Positions 1,773 to 63,095 of a DNA stretch of 64,000 nucleotides are shown here, piece by piece. A program made the position numbers and the translations under genes. The notes beneath the pieces are model-generated. The model ran no database searches. It had not been told where the DNA came from and saw nothing but the letters and a program-made list of their open reading frames with translations. How positions within the stretch are numbered: the stretch's first letter is position 1; every line of letters starts with the position of its first letter. The DNA is from an uncultured Acidobacteriota bacterium (GTDB lineage: Bacteria > Acidobacteriota > Thermoanaerobaculia > Gp7-AA8). The stretch is taken from the NCBI GenBank assembly GCA_963822445.1, contig CAWGHO010000002.1:1408001-1472000 (forward strand), written 5' to 3'.

Positions 1773-1860
1773 GAATGCAGAATGCAGAATGCAGAATGCA
1801 GAAAACCGCCGCGCTCACGGCATAACCCCGTTCTGCATTCTGCATTCTGCATTCTGCATT
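1773..1860. repeat. Heptamer-armed hairpin, family A: (GAATGCA)x4 ... (TTCTGCA)x4
   Basis: Seen directly; ~27-nt unique spacer; second copy at 23853-23941. Confidence 0.95.
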
Positions 1861-2267
1861 TCCTTCTAATCCTCGGATGCGCCACGGACTCGATCGGAGG
1901 AGATGTGGAAATGCGCTCGCTCACCACCGGCTCGTACGCCGCCGCCCAGCCGGAGCAGCCCCAGGCCATTCAGATCGTCTCTGCCGGCGATTACGCGCGG
2001 ATCTGGGACGAGACCATCGGCAGCGGAGAGCGCCCGCAGGTCGACTTTGCTACGGAGTCGGTGGTCATCCTGCTGGCTGGTGCGAAACCCACCGGCGGCT
2101 GGAGCGTCGAGCCACGGGGCGTGCGCCTCGAAGGCCGCGTACTCGTCGTCGACGCGGTCGTGAACCGCCCGCCGTCCAATGCGATCGTCACCCAGGCCTT
2201 CACCTCGCCTTTCGCCGTGATCGCCGTCAAGACCAAGGCGCTGGACAGCGTCCGCTGGAATCCGTGA
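1782..2267 (+). CDS. PrcB C-terminal-like domain lipoprotein
   Basis: P-x-VDFxxE-x-V...GxKPTGGWSV...PPxxAIVTQAFTSPF motif of the PrcB C-terminal family; lipobox-like LILGC; GAGGA 7 nt before ATG 1782 (start uncertain). Confidence 0.7.
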   Translation: MQNAECRKPPRSRHNPVLHSAFCILHFLLILGCATDSIGGDVEMRSLTTGSYAAAQPEQPQAIQIVSAGDYARIWDETIGSGERPQVDFATESVVILLAGAKPTGGWSVEPRGVRLEGRVLVVDAVVNRPPSNAIVTQAFTSPFAVIAVKTKALDSVRWNP

Positions 2268-3106
2268 GACGCCGCAAGCCGGTCACCGGTGCGCTGCTGA
2301 AGGCGCGGCTCGACACGCTGGTCGAGACCTTCGACGTCACGACCATCGAGCCCGATCCGCTGCAACTCGTCCTGCGCTACGACGATCCGCGCGACCAGGA
2401 AGTGGTGGGTCTGATTGCCGCCGCGTTTGCGTACGGCCGCGCGGACATCATCGTGAAGAACATCGGCGCCGTCCTCGACAAGATGACGCCGTCGCCGTAT
2501 CGCTATCTCCGCACCTTCAACGCGCGCGAAGCAACGAAACGCTTCGCCGGCTTCGCCCACCGCTTCCACAAAGCCCCGGACCTGGTCGCCTTCCTCGGCT
2601 GCATCGCCAAACATGAATCCCTCGGCGCTCTTTTCCAGGAGTGCTACGACGAACGCGATCCCGATATCGGCCCAGCTCTAACTCGCTTTGTCCACCGCCT
2701 ACTGCCTACCGCCAACCGCCTACCAGCCGTGAGCTACTTGCTCACGGCGCCTGAAGACGGTTCCGCCTGCAAACGCATGAACCTCTTCCTCCGCTGGATG
2801 GTCCGCCGCACCCCGCCCGACCTCGGCCTCTGGACCTTCGTCGATCCGGCCAAGCTGGTCATGCCCCTCGACACGCACATCCACCGCATCTCCACCTTCC
2901 TCGGATTGAGCGAGCGGAAAAGCGCGGACTGGAAAGCGGCGCGGGCGATCACCGACCGGCTGGCGGTCTTCGATGCGGCCGATCCGGTGCGCTACGACTT
3001 CGCCCTCTGCCGCCTTGGGATTCTCGATTTGTGCAGCCGGAAGCGCCACAAAGAGAACTGCGATGTCTGTTTGTTGAGAGACGTTTGCCGCTTTCCGGTG
3101 CTTTGA
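2264..3106 (+). CDS. TIGR02757-type protein (HhH-GPD superfamily-like) with C-terminal Cys cluster
   Basis: DP..., AYGR, SACKRMNLFLRWMVR, D-LGLW, PLDTH, DPVRYDFAL motifs; GTG overlaps the upstream TGA. Confidence 0.85.
   Translation: MRRRKPVTGALLKARLDTLVETFDVTTIEPDPLQLVLRYDDPRDQEVVGLIAAAFAYGRADIIVKNIGAVLDKMTPSPYRYLRTFNAREATKRFAGFAHRFHKAPDLVAFLGCIAKHESLGALFQECYDERDPDIGPALTRFVHRLLPTANRLPAVSYLLTAPEDGSACKRMNLFLRWMVRRTPPDLGLWTFVDPAKLVMPLDTHIHRISTFLGLSERKSADWKAARAITDRLAVFDAADPVRYDFALCRLGILDLCSRKRHKENCDVCLLRDVCRFPVL
2694..2728. repeat. In-frame heptamer tract (ACYGCCT-type units), single arm of family D
   Basis: ACCGCCT ACTGCCT ACCGCCA ACCGCCT ACCAGCC; same unit as 63071-63095. Confidence 0.8.
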
Positions 3107-3191
3107 CGTACAAAAAACCGGGGCGACAAATCCAACCGTTTGGACCGGACAACCCCTCATTCAAAAACCTGTTGCCCCATTCAACGTTATG

Positions 3192-3235
3192 GATCAACGG
3201 GTTAGCCGAGGTTCAGGCGCGGCACCCGCATTGAA
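3192..3235 (+). promoter_or_regulatory. Putative IHF site plus sigma54-type -24/-12 promoter
   Basis: GATCAACGGGTTA (3192-3204, close to WATCAANNNNTTR) and CGGCAC-N5-TTGAA (GG-N10-GA) in an AT-rich intergenic region upstream of the kinase/NtrC pair. Confidence 0.55.
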
Positions 3236-3252
3236 ACGGATTTGCTCCCCGC

Positions 3253-6015
3253 ATGCGTAAATCGGTCGTGGTGAATGCGTTGATTGCCGTCCTCACGGTC
3301 GGCATCGTCATCGGCGCGTTCGTCTCCTTCCAGCGCAAGCGCTCCTCCTTCGAAAGGATCGACTTCACCTTTCAGCGCCAGGAAGGCTCGATCATCGTCA
3401 AAGGCGTCGACCCCGGAAGCGGTGCCGAGCGCGCCGGTCTGCGCCCCGGCGATCACATCCTGCTGATCGCCGACGCGCCGACGAGTGAGGTCGAGCGCCT
3501 CCAGAAAACGCTCCGTCGCATCGGCAGCACCGTCACGATGGTCGTGAACCGGCCCGGCCGGGGAATGCTCACCGTCAAATACAGCCCACCCGAGCTGAAG
3601 GTCGATTACCCCTACCTCATCCTCAGCTTCATCGGCTTCCTCTACCTGGCCATCGGTCTGTTCACGCTTTTCCGAGGAGAGACGCGGGAGAGCCGGCTGT
3701 TCTTTCTGGTGACCCTGCTTTCCTTCATCGTCTATGTCTACACGCCGGCCGGCGACATCGACTGGAGCTTCAAGCTGCTGCAGTCGATCGAAGACATGGC
3801 CACGATCTTCCTGCCGCCGCTCACGCTGAACTTCTTCCTGCTCTTCCCGCGGCCATTGCTGCGCGAGCGGAAGTGGCTGGCGTGGATGTACATCCCGCCG
3901 GTCCTGCTCGCGCTGTGGAACGTGAACCTGATGGTGTTCAGCAACGCGCTGGCGATCACGTCGGCGCGCCGTTCAATGCTGCTCATTCAGCGCTGGCAAT
4001 ACCTCGACTTCGCAATCTACTTCACGCTGGCCGTGGCCGCGCTCGCGTTCACGTATCGCCAGGCCGCGCCCACCGGCAAGAAGCAGATCAAGTGGATCTA
4101 CCTCGGCCTGGCCCTGGGCGTGATCCCCTTCATCGCCACGTACGTCATCCCGTACATCATTTCCGGCAGCGTGCGGCCCGCGTATGCGACGTTGTCGATC
4201 CTGCCGCTGGCTTTCATCCCACTCGCTTTCGCCGTCTCCATCCTCAAATACAGGCTGTGGGACGTCGAAGTCGTCATCAAGGAAGTGCTGGCCTACACGG
4301 TCACCTTCGTCTTCGGCATGATCGCCTTCTCCACGGTGAACCTGCTGCTCTCGCAGGTCATGGACGAGCGCTCGGGGATGGAGCGGAACTTCCTGGCCTT
4401 CACGTCCGGCCTGCTCATCGCCGGCGTATTGATTCCCGTGAAAGGCAAGATCGAGTCGGTCATCGAGATGATCCTGTACCGCGAGAGCTACCGCCATCGC
4501 CGGACGATGACGGACTTCGCGCAGGAGCTGGCCACCTTCCACGACGTGCACGAGCTCATCGCCATGATGCGCGAGCGGATGCGCACCACGCTGCACATCG
4601 ATCGCATGAACCTCTTCATGCGCGAGGCTACGAACTTCGTGATCTACGACTCCGAGCACGGAATCCCGCGGCGGACGGTCGTCGACGACTTCGGATCGAT
4701 TCCGAAAGAAGGTCCGATCGTCCTTACCGCGCCGCGTCTGCCGGATGAAAGCGAATTGCCGTGGAAGCTGCTCGCGGCCGGCTATCGCTATGTCTTCCCG
4801 TTGCGCAATCGCGGCGAGCTGCAGGGTCTGTTGCTCCTCGGAACGCGCCGCGGGGATGAGCCTCTCTCGCGCGACGATCTGCATCTCATCGGCACGCTCA
4901 CCGCGCCGGTGGCACTGGCCATCGAGAACTCACGCCTGTACGGAAAGCTCCGCCGGCAGCTCGAAGAGATCCGCGCGCTCAAGGAGTACAACGAGAACAT
5001 CATCGAGTCCTCGCTCTCCGCGATCGCGGTCGTCTCCAGCGATGGAACGGTGCTCACCGCCAACAAGGCTTTCTGGGAGCTCGTCGGATCCGATCATTCT
5101 CACGAGTCGATTCACGAGCTCTTCCCGCCCTTCGATGAACTGCGCAGCACGGACGCGCAGGCGCTCTCCACGCACTTCATCAACCAGCAGGGTGTCGAAA
5201 AGGAAGTGACCGTGACTTCGAGTCCGCTCGACGCGACCTCGGTCGGCGGCGAGGTCGCGGACGGCGCGCGCGTGCTGGTCATCGGCGACATCACCGACCG
5301 CTCCCGCCTCGAGCGCGAGCTGCAGGACAAAGAACGTCTGGCTTCCCTCGGCCTGCTCGCCGCCGGCGTCGCGCACGAGGTGAACACGCCGCTCACCGGC
5401 ATCTCCTCGTACGCGCAGCTGTTGCTCGCCGAAACCTCGGAAGACGATCCGAAATACAGGCTGCTCAAGAAAATGGAGCAGCAGACCTTCCGCGCCTCGA
5501 GCCTGGTCAACAACCTCCTGGATCTGATCGCCAACCGGCCCCGTTGCCGGGAGATCGTCGCGCTGCCGGAGCTGATCGAGAAGACCGTGGTGCTGCACGA
5601 GGACCTCCTCAAAGCGAAGCGCATTCAGGTCCACGTCGAGCGCGTCCCCGAACTGCGCGTTCGCGGGAACTTCAACGATCTGCAGCAGGTTCTGACCAAC
5701 GTGCTCATCAATGCCCGCGACGCGGTCGACGAAGGTGGAAACGTCTGGATCTCCGTCGGGGAAGAGAATGAGCGGGTGGTGATTCGCGTGCGCGACGACG
5801 GCAAGGGCATCCCGACGGACATCGTCGGCCGCATCTTCGAGCCGCTGGTGACCACCAAACGGGGCCAGGGCGGTACGGGACTTGGACTCGCCATCAGCCG
5901 CCGGATCATTCACGGCTGCGACGGCGAGATCGAGGTGCAGAGCAAGCCCGGCGAGGGAGCCGAGTTCTCGATTACGTTGCCGCGGATGGACAAGAACGCG
6001 GCCATGCTGGCTTGA
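3253..6015 (+). CDS. Membrane sensor histidine kinase (PDZ, multi-TM, GAF, PAS, HisKA, HATPase)
   Basis: PDZ GLRPGD; H-box AHEVNTPL; N-box NARDA; DDGKG; GTGLGL. Confidence 0.95.
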   Translation: MRKSVVVNALIAVLTVGIVIGAFVSFQRKRSSFERIDFTFQRQEGSIIVKGVDPGSGAERAGLRPGDHILLIADAPTSEVERLQKTLRRIGSTVTMVVNRPGRGMLTVKYSPPELKVDYPYLILSFIGFLYLAIGLFTLFRGETRESRLFFLVTLLSFIVYVYTPAGDIDWSFKLLQSIEDMATIFLPPLTLNFFLLFPRPLLRERKWLAWMYIPPVLLALWNVNLMVFSNALAITSARRSMLLIQRWQYLDFAIYFTLAVAALAFTYRQAAPTGKKQIKWIYLGLALGVIPFIATYVIPYIISGSVRPAYATLSILPLAFIPLAFAVSILKYRLWDVEVVIKEVLAYTVTFVFGMIAFSTVNLLLSQVMDERSGMERNFLAFTSGLLIAGVLIPVKGKIESVIEMILYRESYRHRRTMTDFAQELATFHDVHELIAMMRERMRTTLHIDRMNLFMREATNFVIYDSEHGIPRRTVVDDFGSIPKEGPIVLTAPRLPDESELPWKLLAAGYRYVFPLRNRGELQGLLLLGTRRGDEPLSRDDLHLIGTLTAPVALAIENSRLYGKLRRQLEEIRALKEYNENIIESSLSAIAVVSSDGTVLTANKAFWELVGSDHSHESIHELFPPFDELRSTDAQALSTHFINQQGVEKEVTVTSSPLDATSVGGEVADGARVLVIGDITDRSRLERELQDKERLASLGLLAAGVAHEVNTPLTGISSYAQLLLAETSEDDPKYRLLKKMEQQTFRASSLVNNLLDLIANRPRCREIVALPELIEKTVVLHEDLLKAKRIQVHVERVPELRVRGNFNDLQQVLTNVLINARDAVDEGGNVWISVGEENERVVIRVRDDGKGIPTDIVGRIFEPLVTTKRGQGGTGLGLAISRRIIHGCDGEIEVQSKPGEGAEFSITLPRMDKNAAMLA

Positions 6016-6017
6016 AC

Positions 6018-7427
6018 ATGCGAATTCTGATCGTTGACGACGAAGAAGTCCTGCGAGACGTGCTGGAGGTCGTGCTGCGTCGCGAAGGGTTCGACATCGT
6101 CTCCGCCGCGAGCGGCGAAGAGGCGCTCAGCGTCCTCGATTCGACCGAGGAAATCGACCTGATGATCCTGGATGTGATGCTGCCCGGGATCAGCGGCATC
6201 GACACGCTGCGCTCGGTTCGCATCTCCAATCCCACGCTCCCGGTCATCGTCATCACCGCCTTCTCGTCGATCGACGGCGCGATCGAGGCGATGAAGCACG
6301 GCGCGTTTCACTACATCCCCAAGCCCTTCAAGAACGAAGAAGTGGTGATGACGGTCAACAAGGCCCTCGAGCAGCGGCGCCTTTCGACCGAGAACGAGCG
6401 CCTCAAGTCCGAGCTCTCCGAGAAGTTCTCCTACGCGAACATCATCGGAAAGAGCGAGACCATGCGGAAGGTCTTCGACCTGATCAAGCTCGCCGCGCCG
6501 TCGCGCTCGAACATGCTGATCATGGGCGAGTCGGGCACGGGCAAAGAGCTCGTGGCCAAGGCCATCCATCACGCCAGCCCGCGCGCGCGCAATGCGTTCG
6601 TGACCGTCAACTCCGGATCGCTGCCGCCGGAACTGCTCGAGTCCTCGCTCTTCGGTCACATGAAGGGAGCCTTCACCGGCGCGATCGCCACGAAGCGCGG
6701 TCTGTTCGAAGTGGCGGACGGCGGATCGATCTTCCTCGACGAGATCGGCAATATCAATCTCGAGACCCAGGCCAAGCTCCTCCGCGTCATCCAGGAAAAA
6801 GAGTTCATGCGCCTCGGCTCGGTGGAGACGATCAAAGTCGACGTGCGGATCATCGCCGCGACGAATGCCGACCTCACGCAGCTGATGGCGGAAAAACGCT
6901 TCCGCGAGGATCTGTTCTACCGCCTCAACGTCATCACCATTCAGCTCCCGCCGCTGCGCCGCAAGCGTGAAGACATCCCGCTGCTGGTCCAGCACTTCCT
7001 GGCGAAGTACTCCGAGGAGAACAAGCGGAAGGTCAAAGAGGTGACGCCCGATGCCATGCGCTTGATCATGGAGCACACCTGGCCGGGCAACGTCCGCGAG
7101 CTGGAGAACACCATCGAGCGCGCGGTCGTCCTCTGCACCGGCGATCGCATCACTCCCGAGCTGCTGCCCGACTACCTGCGCTACCCCGTGCGCACCGACC
7201 AGCCGGCGATGGTCGTTCCCGCCGACGGAATCTCGCTCAAAGATGCGGTCTCGAATTACGAGCGGGCGATGATTCTGCAGTCGCTCGAGCTTGCGAACGG
7301 CGTTCAGAAACGCGCCGCGGAACTGCTCCAGCTCAAGCCCTCGACCCTGAACGAGATGATGAAGCGCCTCGGCATCCACGCCAAGTCGAACGCCACAGTC
7401 GAGGACGAGGTCGCGGTCAACGATTAG
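6018..7427 (+). CDS. Sigma54-dependent response regulator (NtrC family)
   Basis: Receiver domain, [28 protein letters not shown]-terminal Fis-type HTH. Confidence 0.97.
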
Positions 7428-7451
7428 CGGACGCGGGCCGTATCAGTTTCC

Positions 7452-8003
7452 GTGCTCACTCTGCTGCTGGCCACGAGGATCTTCTGCGTCATGTCCGGAA
7501 CGACCACCGACGTGGAGGTCGTTTTCACCGGATCCTTTGTCAATGGTGGATCGATCTGGGCGCTGAATCGCCACGTCGCCATCGCGTCCGGATACCTGGC
7601 GCCGGGCAGCTTGCAAACAACCGTCACGGTGGAAGCGATCAGCGCCGGCGAGACGCCGCTCTACTTCGTTTCCCCGATCTATACGACCGCGGGACCGAAG
7701 TATTACCCCGTCCGCATCGGCGAGATCATCGTCGACGACACCCTGGCTTTGACCGTGACCCCGGCGAACCCCGTCGTTGCCGTGGGAGCTCCGGTGAGGC
7801 TGTTCGCGATCACAGCCGGGTCCAACGTCGCCGTCGCCTGGTACGAAGGCGAGAGATACCTCGGCATCGGCAACTCCATCTCCCCGACGCTCGACCGCGG
7901 CGAGCATCGCATCACCGCCCAGGCCTGGAATCGATGCGGAACCGTGACCAGCGAGGCGCTGGTTTCGGTGGTCAAGCCACGCCAGCGCGCTGTCCGTCAC
8001 TGA
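7452..8003 (+). CDS. Hypothetical secreted Ig-like protein ending in KPRQRAVRH
   Basis: Short hydrophobic N-terminus; beta-rich; WYEG...NRCGTVTS Ig-like segment. Confidence 0.6.
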   Translation: MLTLLLATRIFCVMSGTTTDVEVVFTGSFVNGGSIWALNRHVAIASGYLAPGSLQTTVTVEAISAGETPLYFVSPIYTTAGPKYYPVRIGEIIVDDTLALTVTPANPVVAVGAPVRLFAITAGSNVAVAWYEGERYLGIGNSISPTLDRGEHRITAQAWNRCGTVTSEALVSVVKPRQRAVRH

Positions 8004-10830: not shown

Positions 10831-11072
10831 CGCGCGATTCTACGTCGCATCACTTTGATCAATCCTCCCGCGCTGATGATCGTCCACGCGCCTTCCATGA
10901 TGATCAGGCCGGCCTGACGGGTCGTGATCGCCGCGACGAGCAGCGCCGCACCGCCGATGAGGTTCAGCGTCTGGTATGTGTACGTGTCGTAGCGGAGACG
11001 CTCGATCTGATGCGCGCCGTACGCGGTGAGCACGAAGAGTGCGCCGAGGATCGAAATCACTTGCATCAACAT
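10827..11072 (-). CDS. Small membrane protein (CBU_0592-like)
   Basis: C-terminal part of ORF 10827..12191: GALFVLTAY...YQTLNLIGG...EGAW. Confidence 0.75.
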   Translation of the reverse strand: MLMQVISILGALFVLTAYGAHQIERLRYDTYTYQTLNLIGGAALLVAAITTRQAGLIIMEGAWTIISAGGLIKVMRRRIAR

Positions 11073-11090
11073 CGATAGAATCTCCCGCGC

Positions 11091-14429: not shown

Positions 14430-14536
14430 AGTTTATCCCGCGCGAAGACGCGGGATCTCCGCGTGCACGAGCGCAGAGCATGGCAACTTCTGTGAAGGTG
14501 CACGAAGAGATCCCGCGTCTTCGCGCGGGATAAACT
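14430..14536. repeat. REPIN-like doublet with ~39-bp terminal inverted repeats (AGTTTATCCCGCGCGAAGACGCGGGATCTC...)
   Basis: Arms are near-perfect reverse complements, each containing its own ATCCCGCG/CGCGGGAT hairpin; second copy at 33964-34075. Confidence 0.93.
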
Positions 14537-14553
14537 CGAGAACTCGAAAACGC

Positions 14554-21086: not shown

Positions 21087-21106
21087 GGGCAGGGATCATA
21101 ACGTCA

Positions 21107-21184
21107 CGAGGTTGCGGGGTTTCGGGGTTACGGGGTTCGGATGTGCTTCCTCGGAACCCCGAAACCTCGTAACCTCGTAACCAG
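21107..21184. repeat. Octamer-armed hairpin, family B1: (CGRGGTTN)x4 ... (NAACCYCG)x3-4
   Basis: Seen directly; fills most of the waaA/hflX divergent intergenic region and ends right at the hflX ATG. Confidence 0.9.
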
Positions 21185-22444: not shown

Positions 22445-22558
22445 CTGGGTTGCTGGGTTGCTGGGTTGCTAGGTTGCTGAGTGCTTCGCTGACAGGCATG
22501 ATCGTGCGTCCAGCGGAGCACCCAGCAACCCAGTAACCAAGCAACCCAGCAACCCGAG
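22445..22558. repeat. Octamer-armed hairpin, family B2: (CTGGGTTG)x4-5 ... (CAACCCAG)x4-5
   Basis: Seen directly between hflX and the GNAT gene. Confidence 0.92.
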
Positions 22559-23852: not shown

Positions 23853-23941
23853 AATGCAGAATGCAGAATGCAGAATGCAGAAAAGACACGGTCGCTCGTG
23901 CGATGCCGCGTTCTGCATTCTGCATTCTGCCTTCTGCCTTC
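23853..23941. repeat. Heptamer-armed hairpin, family A, second copy
   Basis: (AATGCAG)x4 ... TTCTGCA TTCTGCA TTCTGCC TTCTGCC; spacer differs from copy 1. Confidence 0.95.
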
Positions 23942-23960
23942 CGACGCCGGAGGCGTCGTC

Positions 23961-31555: not shown

Positions 31556-31823
31556 GATCGCGATTATCGCCGCTCTCGCCGGATGCCGCGGGGAGCCGGT
31601 CCCTCGCGATTACCAGAACGCACCGCCGGCGATGACCCATCCGCCCGACAACAAAGCGCAGTCGCCTGCCCAGCACGGGATGGGAGAGGCGACTCCGGAG
31701 ACGTCGTCGGGTGCGGAAGGACCGTCATCGACGGGCCAGCCGATTACGCCGTCGGCGACGGGAACGACCGCGACGTCATCGACGAGCGTGCAGAACACGC
31801 CGCCGGTCTCCACTACGACGTAG
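31539..31823 (+). CDS. Small Pro/Thr/Ser-rich lipoprotein
   Basis: MKRLVMIAIIAALAGC lipobox; low-complexity mature part. Confidence 0.75.
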   Translation: MKRLVMIAIIAALAGCRGEPVPRDYQNAPPAMTHPPDNKAQSPAQHGMGEATPETSSGAEGPSSTGQPITPSATGTTATSSTSVQNTPPVSTTT

Positions 31824-31928
31824 TCGTTAGTGGTTAGTGATTAGTCGTTAGTAGGCCGCCGCCCGTCCACGTTAGTAGACTCCGCGCGCTTCTAACTACT
31901 AACGACTAATCACTAACCACTAACGACT
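31821..31928. repeat. Heptamer-armed hairpin, family C: (TAGTSRT)x4+TAGTAG ... mirror arm
   Basis: Seen directly; unit variants are mirrored exactly in the two arms. Confidence 0.95.
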
Positions 31929-31934
31929 GATCCA

Positions 31935-33961: not shown

Positions 33962-33963
33962 TG

Positions 33964-34075
33964 AGTTTATCCCGCGCGGAGACGCGGGATCTCTTCGTGC
34001 ACCGCGACGGCCGTAGCGACAGCGCGAGTCTCGTTCGTGCACCGGGAGATCCCGCGTCTGCGCGCGGGATAAACT
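33964..34075. repeat. REPIN-like doublet, second copy of the AGTTTATCCCGCG family
   Basis: Same terminal inverted repeats as 14430-14536 with a different central spacer. Confidence 0.93.
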
Positions 34076-34082
34076 GGGAAAA

Positions 34083-39501: not shown

Positions 39502-39594
39502 GTGGTTAGTCGCTAGTCGTTAGTGGTTAGTCGTTAGTAGTCCGTCTCGCCATCAGCCTCTACTAACGACTAATCACTAACGACTAACGACTAA
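39502..39594. repeat. Heptamer-armed hairpin, family C, second copy
   Basis: TAGTCGT/TAGTGGT units ... ACGACTA/ATCACTA units; 19-nt spacer. Confidence 0.95.
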
Positions 39595-54833: not shown

Positions 54834-54861
54834 GGTGTTGTGGCGGATTAGAACACGTTGT

Positions 54862-55710
54862 CTAGCGTGAGTATTCGTAGAAGCCGCGGCCGCTCTTTTT
54901 GCCCAGCCAGCCGGCGTCGACCATCTTCACGAGGAGCGGACAGGGCCGGTATTTCGGATCGCCGAATCCCTGCTCCAGGACGCGCAGAATGGCCAGGCAG
55001 ACGTCGAGTCCGATGAAGTCGGCGAGCGTGAGCGGACCCATCGGGTGATTCATGCCGAGCTTCATCACGCCGTCGATGGCCTCGCGCGTGGCGACGCCTT
55101 CGTACAACGAGAAAATGGCCTCGTTGATCATCGGCATCAGCACGCGATTGGAGATGAAACCGGGGTAATCATTCACCTCGATCGCCGTCTTGCCCATCCG
55201 CCTGGCCAGGTCCTCGACCTTCTGCCAGGTCTCGTCCGATGTGGCAATGCCGCGAATGACTTCCACGAGGGTCATCACCGGAACGGGATTCATGAAATGC
55301 ATGCCGATCACTTTGTCCGGCCGTTTCGTGGCCGCGGCGATTTTGGTGATCGAGATCGAGGATGTGTTCGAGGCGAGGATGCAGTCGGCTTTGGTGATTT
55401 CGTCGAGCTTCGCGAAAAGCTCGGTCTTGGCCTCGACCTTTTCGATGATGGCTTCGATGACGATGTCCGCATCGGCGATCGTCGCGATGTCCGTGGTGGG
55501 CTTGATGCGCGCCACGATCGCGTCGCGCTCGTCGGCGGTCATTTTTCCCTTGTCCACGCCGCGCTGGAGGTTCGAGGTGATGGTCGACACCGCGCGGCTC
55601 AGTAAGGAATCGGTTACATCTACGAGCGTCACGTCGAAGCCGGTCGCGGCTGCTGTATGAGCAATCCCGTTACCCATCGTTCCGCCGCCGATGACGACGA
55701 TGTTTTTCAT
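54862..55710 (-). CDS. hbd: 3-hydroxybutyryl-CoA dehydrogenase
   Basis: [35 protein letters not shown]. Confidence 0.93.
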
Positions 55711-55755
55711 AGGCGGCGGACTGTATCGTAAGATCATCAGTCCCGGAGCGTCGGA

Positions 55756-56976
55756 ATGGCCAAGAAATGCTTCATGTGCGGTCGCGATGTCACGGAGGGA
55801 ATCCTCTGTGAGAAGTGCGACAAGCCTCGGAAGAAGAGCGGCGCGACGCCTTCGGTCGAAGCTTCCGATTCGGAGAGTCCGCGCAAGACGGCGCCGCATC
55901 CGCCCGCTCCATCCCAGTCGCAGCCGCGGGCCAGTGCCGCAACGGCGCCGGCGATCGAGCCCGATCCATTTCCCAAAGCGCCGATCATCAATTTCCCGGT
56001 CGAGTCCGCGTCGCCGGCAATCACCAGCGTCGTCAATCTCCTCGTGGCATCGGGAGTTGCGTGCGTGCTGCTCGGTCCCGATCGCGCGGTGAAGTTCGTC
56101 TCCGATGAATCGCGCCGCATCTTCGACACGCCGCATTCCGAGCTCGCGAATCTCACCACTGTCGAAGCGAAAGCCGGAATCCGCGTCGGCGACCTGAGCG
56201 TGCCCACCACGGCCGGCGTGCGCATCGGAAGCCGCAATTTCATTTACTCGCTCGTCCCGATGTCCGGTGGCGCGTCGGGCGCGGTCCTCGTGTTCCGCCA
56301 CGCCGATCCGATGAACGAAGCGCACGCGTCGTTCGTCACGTACGTGCGCGAGACGGTGCTCGGGCCGTTGCGCGCGATCCGCGAGTCTTTGCGCGCCGCG
56401 GGACGCTCGCGCGGCGATCATTTCCTCGACGACACCGCGGCCGGCATCGATCAGGTGCTGTCGTCGCTGGAGCTCGCGCCGGAAGTGGAAGAAGCCGCGT
56501 TCAGCGCGCGGCCCGTACCGACGGTCACCGAAGTCGTCCGCCGTGTTGCCGATCGCTTCCGTGCGTACGCCGATCTGAAGGGCATCACGCTGCAGGTCGA
56601 CGTGCAGGAGCTGGAGGAGCGCTTCTCTGATCACGATCAGCTCGCAGATGCGCTGGCCATCCTCATGGAGAACGCGCTGCACTACGTTCCCGGCGCGGGC
56701 CAGGTGGTGATCGGCGTGCGCTGGATGGAGCACAAAAACAAGCCGCTGCTGCTGTTCTTCGTGATGGACAACGGTCCGGTGGTTCCGGAGGCGTTGCGCA
56801 CGGCGATCTTCGAGCCGTCGTTCGCCTGGAACCCGCAATCGCAGGAACGCACCGGCCGCGGTCTTTTCAAATGCCGCGAATTTGCCGTTGCGCACGCGGG
56901 TTCTGTGTGGGTCGAATCCAAGACCGGCAAGGCCTGCACGTTCTTCATGCGTGTGCGTCCTGACGGCGTCCGCTGA
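55756..56976 (+). CDS. Zinc-ribbon + PAS-like + HATPase protein lacking the phospho-His (pseudo histidine kinase)
   Basis: CFMC...CEKC; ENALHY, DNGP, IFEP, GRGL; the H-box position reads [10 protein letters not shown]. Confidence 0.75.
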
Positions 56977-57464
56977 TGCGCTCCCTGGCCCTGGTTCTCC
57001 TGCTCGCCGCGCCCCCCGTTTTTGCGACGGATGCGAACGAGATCAACGTCCAGAACGTGATCGCGTTGATGAACGAATACCGCGCGCAGCAGAATCTCTC
57101 TCCGTTGCGCGAAGACCCGCGTCTGACCCAGGCCGCGCGCGACCGCGTGCGGCACATGGAGGAGCTGGCCTACTGGAGTCACGAGGCGCCGGACGGCATG
57201 TCCCCGTTCGTCTGGTTGTCTGCTCGCGACTATCCGTACTGGACCGCCGGCGAAAATCTCGCCTCCGGATTCGAGACCGCGGGGCTGCTGGTGGAGTCGT
57301 GGATGGAGTCCCGCGGTCACCGCGAGAACATCATGGCCGACAAGTTCGAGGACTGCGGCATCGCCATCATCGACGGCACGACTACGGGACCCGGCAACGG
57401 CAAGTCAGTAGTGGTGTTGTTCGGCGCGACGCGGTCGCCGGACCGGGCCTCTAAACAACCTTGA
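56976..57464 (+). CDS. CAP (SCP/YkwD-like) domain secreted protein
   Basis: Signal peptide; N..R, SH, GENLA, WMES.GHRENI. Confidence 0.9.
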
Positions 57465-58533
57465 TCCCCTGGTCCACATCCCGCGACCAGCGCTGCATCC
57501 CCCCAACCAGATTCTTCACCCGCGTGTAGCCCTGTGAGGCGAGGTATTGCCGTGCGCGCTCGCTGCGGCCGCCGGAGCGGCAGATCATGACCACTTCTTT
57601 GTCGCGGGGGATGTCGTCGAGGCGCGTGGGGACCTGGCCGAGGGGGATGTGCGTCGCCTGCTCGACGTGGCCGGCGTTCCATTCGTGCGGCTCGCGCACG
57701 TCGACCAGAACGACGTCCGCGCCGCCGGCGATTTTCTCCGCTACTTCGGCCGGAGTGATGTCGGTTTCATGCATCGGGTTGCAGAACTCCTCATAGTCGA
57801 TGAGCTTCGTGATGGGCGGATGCTGCTCGCATCGCCGCGGGACTTTCATCGTGCGGAACGTCATCCGCAACGCATCGAACAACAGCAGCCGTCCTGCCAG
57901 AGTCTCGCCCGCACCGGTCAGCAGTTTGATGGCTTCGGTCGCCTGAATCGTGCCGACGACGCCGGGGAGGACGCCGAGGACTCCGCCTTCCGCGCAGGAT
58001 GGGACGAGGCCGGGCGGCGGCGGATCGGGATAGAGGCAGCGATAGCAGGGACCATCTTTCGTCGAGAAGACTGAAGCCTGGCCTTCCCAGCGGAAGATCG
58101 AGCCGTAGACATTCGGCTTGCCGAGAATCACGCAGGCGTCGTTGACGAGATAGCGCGTGGCGAAGTTGTCCGTGCCGTCGATGACGATGTCGTAGCTCGC
58201 GAGAATCTCCAGCGCGTTATCCGACATGAGCGGCGCGTTATGCGTTTCGATCTTCACATCAGAGTTGAGGTCTTCCAGCCGTTCGCGCGCGGCTTCGAGC
58301 TTCGGCCGGCCGACGGAGGACGTGCCGTAGAGAATCTGCCGGTGAAGATTGGTAACGTCGACGCGGTCGAAATCCACCAGTCCGATGCGTCCGACACCCG
58401 CGGCCGCGAGATAAAGCGAGGTGGGACTGCCGAGACCTCCGGCGCCGACGATGAGCACCGAGGATTCGAGCAGCTTGCGCTGGCCGGCCTCGCCGATCTC
58501 AGGCAACGTGACCTGGCGGGTGTAGCGACTTAC
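57451..58533 (-). CDS. moeB: MoeB/ThiF adenylyltransferase fused to rhodanese (MoeZ-like); start non-canonical or TTG at 58506
   Basis: RYTRQ, GAGGLG, TNLHRQ, DNF, CYRC, SCAEGGV; DVRE..E...GH, CRSGGRS. Confidence 0.92.
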   Translation of the reverse strand, partial: VSRYTRQVTLPEIGEAGQRKLLESSVLIVGAGGLGSPTSLYLAAAGVGRIGLVDFDRVDVTNLHRQILYGTSSVGRPKLEAARERLEDLNSDVKIETHNAPLMSDNALEILASYDIVIDGTDNFATRYLVNDACVILGKPNVYGSIFRWEGQASVFSTKDGPCYRCLYPDPPPPGLVPSCAEGGVLGVLPGVVGTIQATEAIKLLTGAGETLAGRLLLFDALRMTFRTMKVPRRCEQHPPITKLIDYEEFCNPMHETDITPAEVAEKIAGGADVVLVDVREPHEWNAGHVEQATHIPLGQVPTRLDDIPRDKEVVMICRSGGRSERARQYLASQGYTRVKNLVGGMQRWSRDVDQGIKVV

Positions 58534-58976
58534 GGGAGGAGCCGTGACACAGTCTCCTGAATCTTCTTCCCGTCCGCGCGCCCTTTGAACTTCGCGGTCG
58601 CTTCCTTCATCACCTTCCCCATGTCCTTCTTCGACTGGGCGCCGGTAGATGCGATGATCTCGCGGAGTCCGCTCTCGAGCTCTTCGTCGGACATCTCCGC
58701 GGGCAGGTAAGTCTTCAGCAGCTCCATCTCCGACTTTTCCTTGTCGGCGAGCTCCGTGCGGCCGGCATTGGTGTACTGCTCGATCGAGTCCTGGCGCTGC
58801 TTGACCGCCTTGCGAATCACGGCCATGGCCTCTTCGTCGGAGAGCTCGTGGCCGGAATTGATCTGCTCGTTCTTGAGCGCCGACTGCAGCATGCGCAGCG
58901 TGGAGAGGCGCTCTTTCTCCTGCGCCTTCATCGCCGCGGTCATGTCGGCGCGGATTTTCTCGGTCAGTGCGGCCAT
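58530..58976 (-). CDS. GatB/YqeY domain protein
   Basis: AMKA....L..LR, KQR.DS...Y...GR.EL, YLP, DMGKVM, ADGK; GAGGAG SD. Confidence 0.93.
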   Translation of the reverse strand: MAALTEKIRADMTAAMKAQEKERLSTLRMLQSALKNEQINSGHELSDEEAMAVIRKAVKQRQDSIEQYTNAGRTELADKEKSEMELLKTYLPAEMSDEELESGLREIIASTGAQSKKDMGKVMKEATAKFKGRADGKKIQETVSRLLP

Positions 58977-59013
58977 TGCGTTGCTCCTCGGGCGCATTCT
59001 ATTCTCGCCGCCC

Positions 59014-59580
59014 ATGCCCACGGATCTCCGCGCCCTCCTGGAAGAAACGGGCGCCCTGCTCACCGGCCACTTCCGCCTATCCTCGGGATTGCACAGCCCG
59101 AACTACGTGCAGTGCGCGCGTCTGCTCGAGCATCCGCGGAACGCGAAAGCCATCGGTGCGGATCTCGCGGCGCGCGTCACCGGCGCTGAGAAGATCGTCG
59201 CGCCCGCGCTGGGCGGCGTGATCATCGGCTACACCGTCGCCGACGCGCTCGGCGTGCCGTTCGTTTTCACCGAGCGCAAAGACGGCGCGATGACGCTCCG
59301 CCGCGGATTCACCATCAACGAAGGCGAGAGCGTGGTCATCGTCGAAGACGTGGTCACCACCGGCAAGTCGACGCGGGAGACGGTCGACGTCGTGACGCAA
59401 CAGGGCGGGCGCGTGGTCGGCTTTGCCTCCATTCTCAATCGCAGCGGAAAGGCGAATCCGTTCGATGCGCCGTACGAGGCGTTGCTCGCGTTGAACCTCG
59501 ACACGTACTCCGAAGCGGACTGTCCGCTCTGCGCGAAAGGCGTCCCGCTCGACGCGCCGGGATCGCGCTACTCGAAATGA
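59014..59580 (+). CDS. pyrE: Orotate phosphoribosyltransferase
   Basis: GHF.LSSG.HS..Y.Q, VEDVVTTG. Confidence 0.95.
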   Translation: MPTDLRALLEETGALLTGHFRLSSGLHSPNYVQCARLLEHPRNAKAIGADLAARVTGAEKIVAPALGGVIIGYTVADALGVPFVFTERKDGAMTLRRGFTINEGESVVIVEDVVTTGKSTRETVDVVTQQGGRVVGFASILNRSGKANPFDAPYEALLALNLDTYSEADCPLCAKGVPLDAPGSRYSK

Positions 59581-60029
59581 AGATCGTCACCATCGACGGC
59601 AAGCAGTCCGAGGTTGAGCTCGATGGCTCGGTGCAGGTCGTTGCGGTTCGGGATGAAGAGATCGACCTGCGTGTCGGCGATCGTCAGCACGTCGTGCCGT
59701 ACGTGATCCAGGGCTCGACGATCAGTTTCGTGTTCGAAGGCGAGACCTACGTCGCCGAAGTCACCGATCGTGCGGCGAAAGCGAAGGCGCGGCATCGCGA
59801 TCATTCCACCAGCGCGCCGATGCCCGGGCTCGTGCTCAAACTGCTGGTGAAGCAGGGCGATGTCGTTGCAAAGGCAAGCCCGCTGCTCATCCTCGAGGCC
59901 ATGAAGATGGAGCACCAGATCGTCGCGCCGTACGACGGCACCGTGACCGCCGTGAATTGCAAAGAGGGCGAGCTTGTTCAACCCGGCGTGGAGCTCGTGG
60001 AAGTCACCCGCAATGAAGATCCTCGTTGA
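59577..60029 (+). CDS. Biotin carboxyl carrier protein (acyl-CoA carboxylase C-terminal type)
   Basis: APMPG, EAMKME. Confidence 0.9.
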   Translation: MKIVTIDGKQSEVELDGSVQVVAVRDEEIDLRVGDRQHVVPYVIQGSTISFVFEGETYVAEVTDRAAKAKARHRDHSTSAPMPGLVLKLLVKQGDVVAKASPLLILEAMKMEHQIVAPYDGTVTAVNCKEGELVQPGVELVEVTRNEDPR

Positions 60030-60948
60030 TACCGTCAAGATCGTCGAAGTGGGCCCGCGCGACGGCCTGCAGAACGAAAAAGTCACCATCCCCACCCAGG
60101 TCAAGATCGACTACATCACCGCCCTCGGCGACGCCGGCCTGCGCGTGATCGAAGCGGGCGCGTTCGTCAGTCCGAAGCGGGTTCCGCAGATGGCCGACAC
60201 GGCCGATGTCTATCGGGACATTCCGAAAGATCCCGGCGTCGAGTATCCGGTGCTTGTGCCAAACATGAAGGGTCTCGAGCGCGCGATCGAAGCGGGCGTG
60301 AAATCGATCGCCATCTTCACCGCGTCCTCGGAGACCTTCAACAAACGCAACATCAACATGTCCATCGACGAGTCGTTCGAGAACTATGCGCCGGTCGCGG
60401 CGCGGGCGCGCGAAGAGGGCATTCGCGTTCGCGGCTACGTCTCGACGGCATTCGGTTGTCCGTACGAAGGGGACGTGCCGCCGGAGAAAGTGCTCGAAGT
60501 CTGCGCGCGTTTGCTCGATCTCGGCTGCTACGAAGTTTCCGTCGGGGACACGATCGGCGTCGGCACGCCGATGCAGGTGCAGGGCGTGATCGGCCTTCTT
60601 CGCGACGTGATTCCGGTTTCGCGGCTGGCGATGCATTTCCACGACACCCGCGGCACGGCGCTGGCGAACACGCTCGCCGCGCTGGAGATGGGCATCGCCA
60701 CGTTCGACGCGTCGTCGGGCGGACTCGGTGGCTGTCCGTACGCGCCGGGAGCATCGGGCAATCTCGCGACGGAAGACATCGTCTACATGCTCGACCGGAT
60801 GGCGATCGAGACGGGCGTCGATCTCAATCGCCTCGTGCAGGCCTCGACGATCATCGCCCCCTACCTCGATCATCCGTTGCCCGGCCGTTACCTGCAGGCG
60901 TGCACGCGGAGTGCGATGCCGGTCGCGACGAGCGCTGCCGTACAATGA
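60013..60948 (+). CDS. Hydroxymethylglutaryl-CoA lyase
   Basis: EVGPRDGLQNE, DTIG, HFHDT, GGLGGCPYAPGASGN. Confidence 0.95.
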   Translation: MKILVDTVKIVEVGPRDGLQNEKVTIPTQVKIDYITALGDAGLRVIEAGAFVSPKRVPQMADTADVYRDIPKDPGVEYPVLVPNMKGLERAIEAGVKSIAIFTASSETFNKRNINMSIDESFENYAPVAARAREEGIRVRGYVSTAFGCPYEGDVPPEKVLEVCARLLDLGCYEVSVGDTIGVGTPMQVQGVIGLLRDVIPVSRLAMHFHDTRGTALANTLAALEMGIATFDASSGGLGGCPYAPGASGNLATEDIVYMLDRMAIETGVDLNRLVQASTIIAPYLDHPLPGRYLQACTRSAMPVATSAAVQ

Positions 60949-60951
60949 ATC

Positions 60952-61389
60952 GTGCCTGTCGAGATTCGTGGTCAGCGTCGCGACGGTTGGTACGTCGTTC
61001 CCCACCACGTCGAATTTCGTGATCTCGACGCCTTCGGCCACGTCAACAACGCCGTCTACTTCAGCTACTTCGAATGGGTGCGGTCGCTCCTCTGGTTCGA
61101 GCTGACCGGCTTCGGGGCCGCCCGCGACATCGGCTTCATCGTGGCCCACGCCTCCTGCGATTTCCGCAGGCAGCTCGACCTGGAGCGGATCGATATCTGC
61201 GCTCGCATCAGCGAGTTAGGCACCTCGTCGATGGTTTTCCTTCACGAAATCCGCAAAAACGGTGGCAGCGATGTTGCGGCTACCGGGAAAGTAGTCGTCG
61301 TCATGTTCGACTGGGCAAGCCAATCGAAGGTCCCGATTTCGGAAGGGCTTCGGAGGAAGGTGGCGGAATGGAACGCGGACGCGTCCTGA
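60952..61389 (+). CDS. Acyl-CoA thioesterase (4HBT/YbgC-like)
   Basis: DLDAFGHVNNAVY..Y.E. Confidence 0.9.
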   Translation: MPVEIRGQRRDGWYVVPHHVEFRDLDAFGHVNNAVYFSYFEWVRSLLWFELTGFGAARDIGFIVAHASCDFRRQLDLERIDICARISELGTSSMVFLHEIRKNGGSDVAATGKVVVVMFDWASQSKVPISEGLRRKVAEWNADAS

Positions 61390-62222
61390 CTCACCCGGCA
61401 CTCGCGCGGCGGCGGTTCGTGGAGATCGCCGAGCGGCCTGAGCCATTGCTCGACCTCGTCGAGGCCTCGCTGGTGATCGCTCTCGAAGAGAACCCGGCCC
61501 TCGACATCGCCCAGCACCTCGACAACGTTGCCGGCTGGAGCGAGTGCGTTCGCGGGCGGCTGGAAGGGTCGCGAGAGATCGAGCGGATCGTCGAGACCAT
61601 CAACGCCGTGCTGTTCGACGAGGAGGGCTTCCACGGCGAGGACGAGGATTACTTCGATCCGCGCAGTGCACTGCTCAGCGAAGCCCTCGAACGCCACGCC
61701 GGCCTGCCGATCACGTTGTCCGTTCTCTACATCGAGCTCTCGCGGCGGATGGGCATCGAGGCCACGGGCGTGTCCCTGCCGGGCCGGTTTCTGGTGAAGT
61801 TCACCGGACCCTTCGGAACGATCGTCGTCGACCCGTTCGACGGCGGACGCGTGCTGACCACGCCGGAGCTGCAGAAGCTCCTCGATGCGATGTACGGCGG
61901 TGGCGTGCGGCTTCGCGAACATCACCTTCGCTCGTTCGGCCCGAAGGAGATCCTCGCCCGCGAGCTGGCCCAGCTCAAGGCCGCGTATCTCGCGCAGCAC
62001 GATCTGCCGCGGGCCGCGGCGTCGATCGATCGCCTGCTCATCCTCGACGATCGCGATGCCTGGGAAGTGAAGGATCGCGCCGCGGTGGCGATGCAGATGC
62101 ACGCGTACCGGCAGGCCATCGAGCTGTTCGAGCGCTATCTCACGCTGATGCCCTCCGCCGAGGATCGATTGCGCGTGCGGGAGCAGGTCGGCTATCTCAG
62201 AGCGTGGCTCGACCAGAATTGA
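61368..62222 (+). CDS. SirB1/transglutaminase-like + TPR protein
   Basis: GF.G..EDY.DP, G.PITLS, PG.FL, DPFDGG, C-terminal TPR. Confidence 0.85.
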   Translation: MERGRVLTHPALARRRFVEIAERPEPLLDLVEASLVIALEENPALDIAQHLDNVAGWSECVRGRLEGSREIERIVETINAVLFDEEGFHGEDEDYFDPRSALLSEALERHAGLPITLSVLYIELSRRMGIEATGVSLPGRFLVKFTGPFGTIVVDPFDGGRVLTTPELQKLLDAMYGGGVRLREHHLRSFGPKEILARELAQLKAAYLAQHDLPRAAASIDRLLILDDRDAWEVKDRAAVAMQMHAYRQAIELFERYLTLMPSAEDRLRVREQVGYLRAWLDQN

Positions 62223-62247
62223 CCCTCTGGTAACATCTGCCACTCCC

Positions 62248-62967
62248 GTGATTACCGGCTTCAACACCGACATCAAGCACAACGAGAAGGTCTACCACGT
62301 CCAGACCGAGGACAAAGGTATGGCCAACCCGTACATCGAGTCGCTCGTGTATGTCGGCGGCGAGATCCTGGCGTCGAAGAAGACCTCGTACGCGGAGCAG
62401 CTCAAGACCGGCGTCGATGAGAAATGGATCGGCGGTCTGATGGAGCAGCAGCACCGCACGATGATCGCGGCCATCAAGCGCGGCCGCTTCGATGCGCCGG
62501 CCGACACGACCAAGAACATCCCCCGCCCCACGACGACCCCAACGCTGGCCGCCGACGCCTCGGCGCTGCTCAACACCGGAGAGCGCGCCGCGCTGGTCAT
62601 CGACGATGAGAAGACGCTCGATCAGGTGATCATCGACTACCTCGCTTCCGAGGCGGAGAGCGAGCATCTTGAGCTGTCGCTGATCGATACGATCGATTTC
62701 TTCGCCGGAAATCCGATCGAGCTGCGCGTCGCCGCGCGCAAAAGCCTTTCCCAGTCGCCCATCCCCGCGGCCGCGATCGAAGTCAAAGTGATCTCGACCG
62801 TCGAGCCGCCGCGGGTCATCTTCCGCGGCAAGACCGCCGCCGACGGCACGACCGTCGTCCGCTGCACCATCCCCTCGTTCCGCGAAGGCACCGCCGCCGT
62901 GATCATCTCGGCGCAGAGCCCGATCGGGAACGATGAGGTGAAGCAGCTGGTGAAGCGTAAAAAGTAG
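62248..62967 (+). CDS. Conserved hypothetical protein
   Basis: Coding-like composition; G.NTDI....YHVQTED N-terminal motif. Confidence 0.75.
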   Translation: MITGFNTDIKHNEKVYHVQTEDKGMANPYIESLVYVGGEILASKKTSYAEQLKTGVDEKWIGGLMEQQHRTMIAAIKRGRFDAPADTTKNIPRPTTTPTLAADASALLNTGERAALVIDDEKTLDQVIIDYLASEAESEHLELSLIDTIDFFAGNPIELRVAARKSLSQSPIPAAAIEVKVISTVEPPRVIFRGKTAADGTTVVRCTIPSFREGTAAVIISAQSPIGNDEVKQLVKRKK

Positions 62968-63095
62968 GCAGTACGCGGCTTCGCCGCTCGCGGTAGGCAG
63001 TAGGCAGGAGGCCGCCACCCGACCACGAATGTGCTGGGCCATCGTTCCCCTGCGAGGCGCGAAGCGCCGTACCGCCTACTGCCTACCGCCTACTG
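62964..63095. repeat. Heptamer-armed composite hairpin, family D (GTAGGCA/G ... CYGCCTA) with mirrored mini-hairpins
   Basis: Left GTAGGCAGTAC[GCGGC-TTC-GCCGC]TCGCGG; right CTGCGA[GGCGC-GAA-GCGCC]GTACCGCCTAC. Confidence 0.85.

Follow-up and report, generated by a model that had tools for sequence, protein, structure and literature searches.

Tandem-armed hairpins between genes of an acidobacterial genome and their probable kinship with four-helix-bundle gene cassettes

Pairs of short tandem-repeat arrays facing each other are already in print for Geobacter and Xanthomonas. In Geobacter metallireducens, tandem heptamers and octamers that face each other from opposite strands, a variable distance apart, were taken as regulator sites (Aklujkar et al. 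2009, PMC2700814), and 70 and 75 convergent pairs of the heptamer GGGAATC were reported from two Xanthomonas genomes (Rehm et al. 2015, PMC4692102). Here, we analyze a 64,000-nucleotide (nt) stretch of DNA from an uncultured Acidobacteriota bacterium (the window, C2:1408001-1472000 of the query genome G000, which comprises 6.0 Mb on three contigs, C1 to C3) with seven hairpins whose arms are tandem arrays of 7- or 8-nt units. We propose that these hairpins probably belong, as gene-less copies, to a class of palindromic elements that in their full-length form carry a gene for a four-helix-bundle (4HB) protein (PF05635/TIGR02436).

Like the hairpins of G000, the Geobacter sites consist of three to five tandem units of 7-9 nt paired on opposite strands, occur in dozens of copies, and fall into several unit classes. 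The consensus of their class 1, GTTGCTYN, is the same octamer, rotated, as the CTGGGTTG/GTTGCTGR unit found at window position 22445. They differ in belonging to another phylum and in having been read as sites of a global regulator, and a link to 4HB genes is not reported in the main-text parts of PMC2700814 used here. The Xanthomonas pairs share with our hairpins the convergent heptamer arrays, the mostly intergenic placement and the poor conservation between species, but have a single unit, were studied as G-quadruplex formers, and are presented without mention of gene cargo in the parts of the text used here. Both features that describe this paired tandem-repeat class (Geobacter 2009, Xanthomonas 2015) are present in the hairpins of the window and of G000. 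A further link to Xanthomonas is the solved relative of the cassette proteins described below, 2GSC (XCC0516), which is a Xanthomonas campestris protein.

Intervening sequences (IVSs) of 23S rRNA that bear an open reading frame (ORF) are also found in Leptospira, and the stems of rRNA IVSs undergo RNase III-type cleavage. The IVS of Coxiella burnetii, with S23p, was described as a selfish element (PMC4990558). As in six cassettes of G000, its PF05635-family ORF lies between complementary stem-forming ends. The seven window hairpins differ from 23S rRNA IVSs in three respects: all are located between protein-coding genes instead of in a helix of 23S rRNA, tandem arrays make up their stems, and their loops of 11-71 nt contain no ORF, and hence none of the PF05635 family.

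In the REPIN-RAYT systems of Bertels and Rainey, many short hairpin doublets reportedly go with a single protein gene, or a few, with the cognate repeat on either side, and the families are said to be lineage-specific, with repeat and gene co-varying. The class in G000 differs in its protein, a small helical bundle without known catalytic motif and not a Y1 transposase, and in its tandem-array arms. The cyanobacterial STRR heptamers reportedly described by Mazel et al. in 1990 are said to be consensus units in heterocystous cyanobacteria; the likeness to them, which a first-pass annotation of the window had suggested, comes down to the 7-nt period. In the Beggiatoa genome, the TAACTGA repeats of Beggiatoaceae form 169 direct sets and one indirect set (MacGregor 2015, PMC4679880). 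STRR and TAACTGA repeats resemble our arrays in period, in low copy number (2-6), and in their intergenic position, often just upstream of start codons, but they are mostly direct arrays, whereas the inverted pair is the rule in G000.

Proteins of the PF05635/TIGR02436 family are, to our knowledge, very common and without an assigned function. Among the literature matches listed, judged by title and start of the abstract and with subscription journals and the Geobacter supplements outside the scope, no paper links this family to tandem-repeat hairpins, and a text search of the Xanthomonas (PMC4692102) and Beggiatoa (PMC4679880) papers, as far as their texts were covered, found no mention of the S23/4HB family. 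The observations below tie these two puzzles, the PF05635 proteins and the paired heptamer/octamer arrays, together in one genome (six of six genes), in its class, and in several phyla.

Cassettes and empty hairpins in one genome

A PF05635 search of the whole of G000 found exactly six genes, each of them in the spacer of a tandem-armed hairpin. All six match TIGR02436, "four helix bundle protein", and two also weakly match the Avd model (NF033474). Five of these cassettes were first seen as arm pairs about 365-400 nt apart with a small ORF in each spacer; the sixth gene, C3:432320-432634, is also bracketed by 8-mer arrays. The six cassettes have six different units (AGTCGTT, ACGAGGG-type, GGGTTRCG, GAATGCA, GAAGGCA, and AATTGAA), four of which are those of abundant families of empty hairpins. 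A systematic scan of G000 for arm pairs 150-6,000 nt apart recovered five of the six cassettes, one artefact, and no other cargo. The first-pass annotation had proposed a search for spacers holding a candidate mobilizer, such as a small nuclease, a 4HB protein, or a reverse transcriptase; the 4HB gene was found in all its six occurrences in the genome, and there was no nuclease, transposase, or reverse transcriptase within this range of spacers. PADLOC assigned none of seven cargo proteins to a defence family.

Gene-less hairpins greatly outnumber the cassettes, which by analogy resembles REPINs around a RAYT gene or ORF-less beside ORF-bearing rRNA IVSs. Mobilization of REP/REPIN-type elements by RAYT itself, a Y1 HUH transposase, is nevertheless largely refuted and barely credible here. 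The logic is REPIN-like, with hairpin doublets in many intergenic copies, and G000 has four weak Y1_Tnp (PF01797) matches (23.6-37.4 bits); none of these four genes is flanked by arrays (0-2 arrays within 2.5 kb, none adjacent), the arms are tandem arrays instead of individually palindromic REPs, and the hairpins track PF05635 genes instead.

Several window hairpins agree with a resident cassette in unit, phase, and length of the arms: GAATGCA (1773 and 23853) with the cassette at C3:1244131, TAGTSRT (31821 and 39505) with that at C1:681621, and NCGRGGTT (21106) with that at C3:432320. The CTGGGTTG (22445) and GTAGGCR (62963) units have no resident cassette in G000. The seven hairpins are as follows, with gene strands in parentheses.

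1770..1865: hairpin 1, GAATGCA arms at 1773-1803/1831-1860 (4.4 and 4.3 copies), unrelated loop of 27 nt, -61.8 kcal/mol, z -13.0; divergent gap between a CarboxypepD_reg-domain gene (-) and a DUF2400 gene (+)
21106..21182: hairpin 2, NCGRGGTT 8-mer arms at 21106-21137/21149-21182, z -7.3; divergent gap between a Kdo-transferase gene (-, start 21086) and an HflX-type GTPase gene (+, start 21185)
22445..22556: hairpin 3, CTGGGTTG 8-mer arms at 22445-22479/22520-22555, conserved inner stem GTGCTTCGC/GCGGAGCAC and family-conserved loop, -86.6 kcal/mol; begins 3 nt past the GTPase stop codon and ends 7 nt ahead of a GNAT gene start
23853..23941: hairpin 4, GAATGCA arms at 23853-23882/23911-23941; follows a cytochrome c assembly gene (stop 23845) and precedes hemA (start 23961)
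31821..31929: hairpin 5, TAGTSRT arms (called as TAGTCGT) at 31821-31852/31892-31928, unit variants mirrored exactly, z -10.5; 5 nt upstream of the fmt start codon (31935), left neighbour uncertain
39505..39594: hairpin 6, TAGTSRT arms at 39505-39538/39562-39594; divergent gap between a Urate_ox_N-domain gene (-) and a short-chain dehydrogenase gene (+)
62963..63094: hairpin 7, irregular GTAGGCR arms called at 62993-63012/63065-63093, loop with family motif GGAGGCCGCCACCC, z -4.3; begins at the stop codon of an upstream gene of unknown function (62967), downstream phosphodiesterase gene starts at 63131

These are the places and the design that the first-pass annotation had described, about four tandem 7- or 8-nt units followed by an inverted second tract. 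Tandem Repeats Finder recovered both arms of all seven hairpins, with 2.9-5.3 copies per arm, and direct reading shows the two tracts of each to be reverse complements of one another. Three of them lie in divergent gaps, three between co-directional genes, and one just upstream of fmt, which bears out the setting given earlier. The window has 62-66% G+C throughout, so the arms stand out as A+T-richer. The RNA folds each form one long stem (-52.3 to -86.6 kcal/mol, z -4.3 to -13.0), and in no case did any of 200 dinucleotide shuffles per hairpin reach the observed folding energy. The hairpin at 62963-63094 is the least regular, with an additional GC-rich segment at non-mirrored places of its two arms.

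Genes and arms across genomes

TIGR02436 matches occur in 74 of 119 genomes of the class (76 of 121 if G004 and G104 are counted), and one family has them in 0 of 18. Of 51 such loci in 39 further genomes of the class, 42 were flanked by an inverted repeat, which was periodic at 35 of them; in a control of 299 small G000 genes picked at random, there was a single inverted repeat, a periodic one. Among 80 loci encoding relatives of the AGTCGTT-cassette protein in five phyla (Acidobacteriota, Planctomycetota, Chloroflexota, Proteobacteria, and Bacteroidota), 77 were testable; 62 of these had a flanking inverted repeat, periodic in 57 cases and then always of period 7. Nearly all arms of this set are built on an AGT core, like those of the AGTCGTT cassette of G000, and arms of the other protein subfamily in the genus have GAA- or GAT-type units. 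A non-coding motif stays with its protein subfamily at about 50% protein identity, which speaks for gene and arms being one functional unit. They have been inherited together across phyla.

The presence of the gene also goes with that of gene-less hairpins. With the same pair-finding pipeline applied to evenly spaced 20-kb samples of a small set of related genomes, 55 array pairs were found in 960 kb of six 4HB-positive genomes, compared with none in 800 kb of five 4HB-negative ones. The positive genomes were G000 (six 4HB genes, 12 pairs in 200 kb), G087 (eight genes, 14 pairs in 200 kb), G036 (four genes, 11 pairs in 200 kb), G074 (17 genes, 14 pairs in 140 kb), G028 (six genes, three pairs in 140 kb), and G053 (one gene, one pair in 80 kb). 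The negative genomes, G025 and G029 (200 kb each), G024 and G052 (140 kb each), and G045 (120 kb), come from four families, and G024 belongs to the same family as two positives. In this sample, genomes without a 4HB gene are also without hairpins.

Within the genus, units and cassettes co-vary from species to species, as judged from triple-unit matches in 12 published genomes including G000. GAATGCA has 59 such matches in G000, 51 in G131, five in G127, three each in G125 and G130, and none in the seven others; GAACGCA has 29 in G125, 20 in G131, and none elsewhere, G000 included. The closest relatives of the GAATGCA-cassette protein, which is encoded at C3:1244101-1244445 in G000, have GAACGCA arms in G125, GAATGCA arms in G131, and GAAGGCA arms in G130. 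A second, orthologous cassette has AATTGAA arms in G000, G131, G124, and G128 and AATTGAG-type arms in G123 and G129; G103 also has an AATTGAA-armed cassette. All seven of these genomes have matches of their own variant only (AATTGAA/AATTGAG 13/0, 5/0, 7/0, 25/0, and 83/0 versus 0/20 and 0/8), a few of the matches being the cassette arms themselves. The orthologous site of the AATTGAA cassette in G130 holds an empty hairpin with GAAGGCA arms, the unit of G130's own cassette. Empty hairpins carry the unit variant of the genome's resident cassette, with exceptions in G126, G127, G130, and G121 that are weighed below.

The tie between gene and arrays rests on this presence and absence and on the species-specific co-variation of units, and it leads to one testable question, whether the protein binds its own arrays and to what effect. 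GAATGCA and GAACGCA, as well as AATTGAA and AATTGAG, are natural matched pairs, each with its own protein. For annotation, the result means that about 290 intergenic sites in G000, many of them inside operons, are occupied by such elements.

A side observation concerns AGT-core arms of different phyla (L195, L199, L200, L216, L255, L262, and L268), in which one inner unit opens with GGT instead of AGT. This variant is position-specific and common to arms with otherwise different units.

Anatomy of arms and loops

G000 contains 1,195 arrays with a period of 6-9 and at least 2.8 copies, 578 of which make 293 inverted pairs within 300 nt. The remaining 617 are unpaired and mostly GC-rich with period 6 or 9; a hairpin-family unit is carried by 130 of the 214 unpaired period-7/8 arrays, so that solo arms exist. 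One of these 130, the C-rich CCGCCTA array of the window (4.4 copies, 2694-2724), has no G-rich partner and lies inside the DUF2400 gene (1877-3106). The 52 canonical units of the pairs fall into about 12 superfamilies, the largest with 66, 33, 31, 29, and 29 copies. Most stems measure 25-35 bp and most loops 5-50 nt.

The G-richer arm comes 5' in all seven window copies and in 280 of the 293 pairs genome-wide; G equals C in nine pairs, and in four the order is reversed, two of these being mispairings of neighbouring arrays. The first-pass annotation had recognized this polarity and added that it holds on either strand, which is automatic for any inverted repeat. An inverted repeat reads in the same order on the other strand, and the real invariant is therefore that the G-richer unit of each family sits 5'. 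Polarity extends to the other genomes, with G exceeding C in the 5' arm in 31 of 36 periodic class loci (including one of G000; one equal, four reversed) and in 49 of the 57 in the five-phylum set (three equal, five reversed). Such an order would result if both 3' ends of a break were extended on a template in a telomerase-like manner and then joined head to head, leaving G-rich arrays that point inward on both strands, a templated synthesis that the first-pass annotation had floated. The polarity as in head-to-head telomere fusion, the unrelated loops, as filler DNA would be, and the membership of Avd, a reverse-transcriptase partner, in the cassette protein family (the weak NF033474 matches) agree with it. 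We regard this explanation as very improbable, since G000 (94.7% complete) has no RVT_1 match, arm length is fixed and variants are position-specific, and the CTGGGTTG family copies its loop, too.

The arms have a fixed format. Copy number per arm has a median of 4.4 (interquartile range 4.0-4.5; 89% between 3.3 and 5.0), and arm ends fall in the same part of the unit, such that an invariant core occurs five times over four full periods and a partial fifth. The core is conserved to 97-100% and one or two positions of the unit are free, with the same profile in either arm. The 8-mer family conserves GGTT and CG to 97-100%, while one position is A46/T26/G23 and another G66/A32; in the TAGTSRT family, TAGT is 98-100% conserved. 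The two arms of a hairpin are 0.905 identical in register and 0.850 after a shift by one unit. Of 257 hairpins, 200 have the higher value in register, 50 have the lower one there, and seven show no difference. This extends to the whole genome the exact mirroring of unit variants that was noted at 31821, where it is confirmed by reading. Among 7,970 stem positions, 372 variants are mirrored and 723 unmirrored, and mirroring is above chance. Arm mismatches are mainly transitions (G.T 230, A.C 209), and those in co-directional gaps comprise 109 G.U in the mRNA sense versus 101 in the antisense; the transcribed strand has no G.U preference, which gives no sign of selection for RNA pairing. No target-site duplication was found above shuffled expectation for k=2-6 at several offsets (k=4, 2 observed vs. 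1.17 expected), nor was a flanking motif found around the stems. Miniature inverted-repeat transposable elements were ruled out as a class for the hairpins, with direct repeats at shuffled expectation and interiors unrelated except in one family.

The loops present the opposite picture. Loop pairs with a common 10-mer number 1 of 351 in the GAAKGCA family, 1 of 153 in ARAGKCKC, 8 of 351 in TAGTSRT, 10 of 780 in NCGRGGTT (mostly nested arrays), and 11 of 378 in TAGGCRG (the GTAGGCA family, with partial sharing), compared with 49 of 14,029 between families as background. The unique spacer of the original description is therefore right for most families, at or near background, only partly so for GTAGGCA, and wrong for the CTGGGTTG copy at 22445. 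In this CTGRGTTG family, a 10-mer is common to 15 of 45 loop pairs, copies have the inner stem and the loop in common, and the loop is found in both orientations. The family behaves like a dispersed repeat in which the whole element, about 107 bp, is repeated, with copies 86-90% identical. With loops mostly unrelated and no target-site duplication, simple cut-or-copy transposition of whole elements does not fit, the CTGGGTTG family being a possible exception. Of the first-pass view that the hairpins are elements made by an unknown mobilizing activity, the dispersed families, the fixed design, and the present or absent sites stand. Two candidate sources of the loops were rejected: leftovers of the interior ends of the resident cassette gave no match on inspection (GAATGCA and TAGTSRT families), and the original target, as in nick-and-extend, is contradicted by the relatives' empty sites, which do not contain the loop sequence.

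Some loops contain other arrays. GGTTGTCR arrays are nested inside GTTGCGGG (NCGRGGTT) hairpins at C2:571885-572031 and C2:2334284-2334450, and further such nesting in NCGRGGTT loops occurs at C1:213328 and C3:602430; either one family targets the other's loop, or both belong to a composite family.

A number of findings weigh against the seven hairpins being gene-less relatives of the cassettes. About half of the hairpins of G000 belong to families without a resident cassette (ARAGKCKC 35, TAGGCRG 41, CTGRGTTG 15, and GGTTGTCN 8), and these are no more decayed, their arm complementarity being 0.81-0.86 versus 0.82-0.93. One heptamer-armed hairpin, C2:654246-654687 (AGTAATG/ATGAGTG), holds an unrelated 120-amino-acid gene (C2:654311-654673; no NCBIfam or PADLOC match), from which it follows that loops can simply receive cargo. 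AATTGAA has 72 matches in G126 and 43 in G127, yet no AATTGAA-armed cassette is among their two and six family matches, and the orthologous cassette site in these genomes is a gap of 34-40 nt; G130 and G121, with six AATTGAA matches each, are likewise without a matching cassette. Some cassettes may be unassembled, as several sit at contig ends. In most families, copies have nothing in common in their loops, and no copying model offered explains that; the co-occurrence counts overstate independence, because the compared genomes are few and related; and we know of no catalytic activity for the 4HB fold.

The exceptions in G126, G127, G130, and G121 and the undecayed cassette-less families keep open a rival in which hairpins are primary and have no dedicated protein: slippage during replication and template switching within a strand would create them at hairpin-prone gaps and keep them palindromic, and 4HB genes, like other small cassettes, would merely land in the loops. 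We consider this unlikely. The unrelated gene in one hairpin, the two nested hairpins on C2, the lack of target-site duplication, the intactness of the cassette-less families, and the missing cognate cassettes of G126 and G127 all suit it, and mirrored variants are expected from template switching. Arbitrary hopping of genes, however, would not keep the unit core with a protein subfamily across phyla (AGT for one, GAA/GAT for the other), free slippage would hold neither the narrow copy number nor invariant cores beside drifting wobble positions, and a change of unit variant in the cassette arms is accompanied by the same change throughout the genome.

Returning to hairpins as relatives of 4HB cassettes, four features point to units being recognized by their sequence, and not to RNA pairing or slippage: arms always have five cores, free positions accompany an invariant core, both arms are alike, and units co-vary with the cassette. 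The arms may be recognition arrays for the cassette protein, and protein recognition instead of RNA pairing would then keep the cores invariant. The entry of the solved relative 2GSC contains five chains; it is presumably a pentamer, and presumably Avd is one likewise. The elements would persist by settling in the only places that tolerate them, in divergent gaps and immediately after stop codons, and a transcribed stem of 31-35 bp might be handled like the stems of rRNA IVSs, by RNase III-type cleavage, leaving neighbouring genes unharmed. It is a tentative possibility that the arms are five-site arrays read by a ring-forming, probably pentameric 4HB protein, and that protein and arrays together constitute a self-recognizing replicator without known transposase that writes, converts, or protects its own arrays at hairpin-prone gaps. 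If true, this would give the very large PF05635 family its first function, unite rRNA IVSs, the Geobacter and Xanthomonas paired repeats, and the bacterial heptamer excess in one element class, and, because unit variants and proteins change together, reveal a new programmable protein code for 7-8-nt words.

Position and turnover of the sites

Gene contexts were taken from a crude gene caller (about 77% coding) for 257 clean hairpins: 120 lie between co-directional, 23 between divergent, and 20 between convergent genes, 15 inside an ORF called by this caller (a real insertion or a caller artefact), and 79 have no called gene within 400 nt. Co-directional settings thus make up 120 of 163 classifiable hairpins, compared with 2,266 of 3,514 adjacent gene pairs as background. 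Relative to the stop codon of the preceding gene, the stem base falls between -5 and +4 nt in 82 of the 160 cases that could be measured, and the median distance to the following start codon is 18-26 nt. At least six T in the 10 nt past the stem were found for one (+ strand) and six (- strand) of the 257 hairpins, in agreement with the early remark that U-tails are lacking and that these are not simple terminators. Intrinsic (Rho-independent) terminators were ruled out on this near-absence and on the 23 copies in divergent gaps.

The tight position at stop codons and the excess of co-directional settings are what host regulatory or RNA-processing sites would show, be they paired arrays bound by a regulator, stems that process or stabilize mRNA, or U-less terminators between operon genes, and equivalent sites were named "predicted global regulator binding sites" in the parts of Aklujkar et al. 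2009 (PMC2700814) used here. A host function of this kind is nonetheless improbable. The same gene pair abuts or overlaps in most relatives and works without a hairpin, site content is swapped for unrelated units or non-tandem palindromes between species, U-tails are rare and the transcribed strand has no preference for G.U, and in a regulon, point mutation would not convert GAATGCA to GAACGCA in all units of all sites.

From species to species, sites appear, disappear, and take up other units, as seen in relatives of the genus with flanking genes about 73-86% identical. The site at 23853 has GAATGCA arms in G000 and GAACGCA arms in G125, with unrelated loops and a GGAGG mini-stem after both; in G123 its arms are GTTGTCN, G124 and G121 have palindromes there that are not tandem, and in G131, G127, G130, G126, and G128 the gap from stop to start is only 1-6 nt. 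On the tree of the flanking genes, this makes five state changes where the minimum possible is three, and two well-supported sister pairs differ. At the site at 22445, the flanking genes overlap by 4 nt (GTGA) in G121; the site at 21106 is empty in G121 and that at 39505 in G130 and G121, and only 44 nt separate the anchors of the 31821 site in G126. The public sequencing runs listed included none of RNA; the DNA runs contained at most 0.10 of the sampled words, and the four examined gave one useful joint, 39488/39597: the segment 39489-39596 is replaced by 12 letters in contigs from three public runs of three studies, one of them about 95% identical on the left flank. The genome-wide scan and the comparison of empty with filled sites, both suggested by the first-pass annotation, accordingly revealed neither random orientation nor constant occupancy.

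Just 3' of the 23853 hairpin, a GC-rich mini-stem at 23942-23960 presents GGAGG before the hemA start. In the species with an empty site, hemA starts 1-6 nt past the upstream stop codon, without a separate ribosome-binding spacer.

The window also contains another palindromic dispersed repeat with non-tandem arms, at 33963-34077 and 14430-14537 (115 bp, -87 kcal/mol, co-directional gap). About 48 genome loci match it at 76-89% identity, and in related-strain contigs it is swapped for 28-39 other letters, so that this repeat, too, varies in presence and absence.

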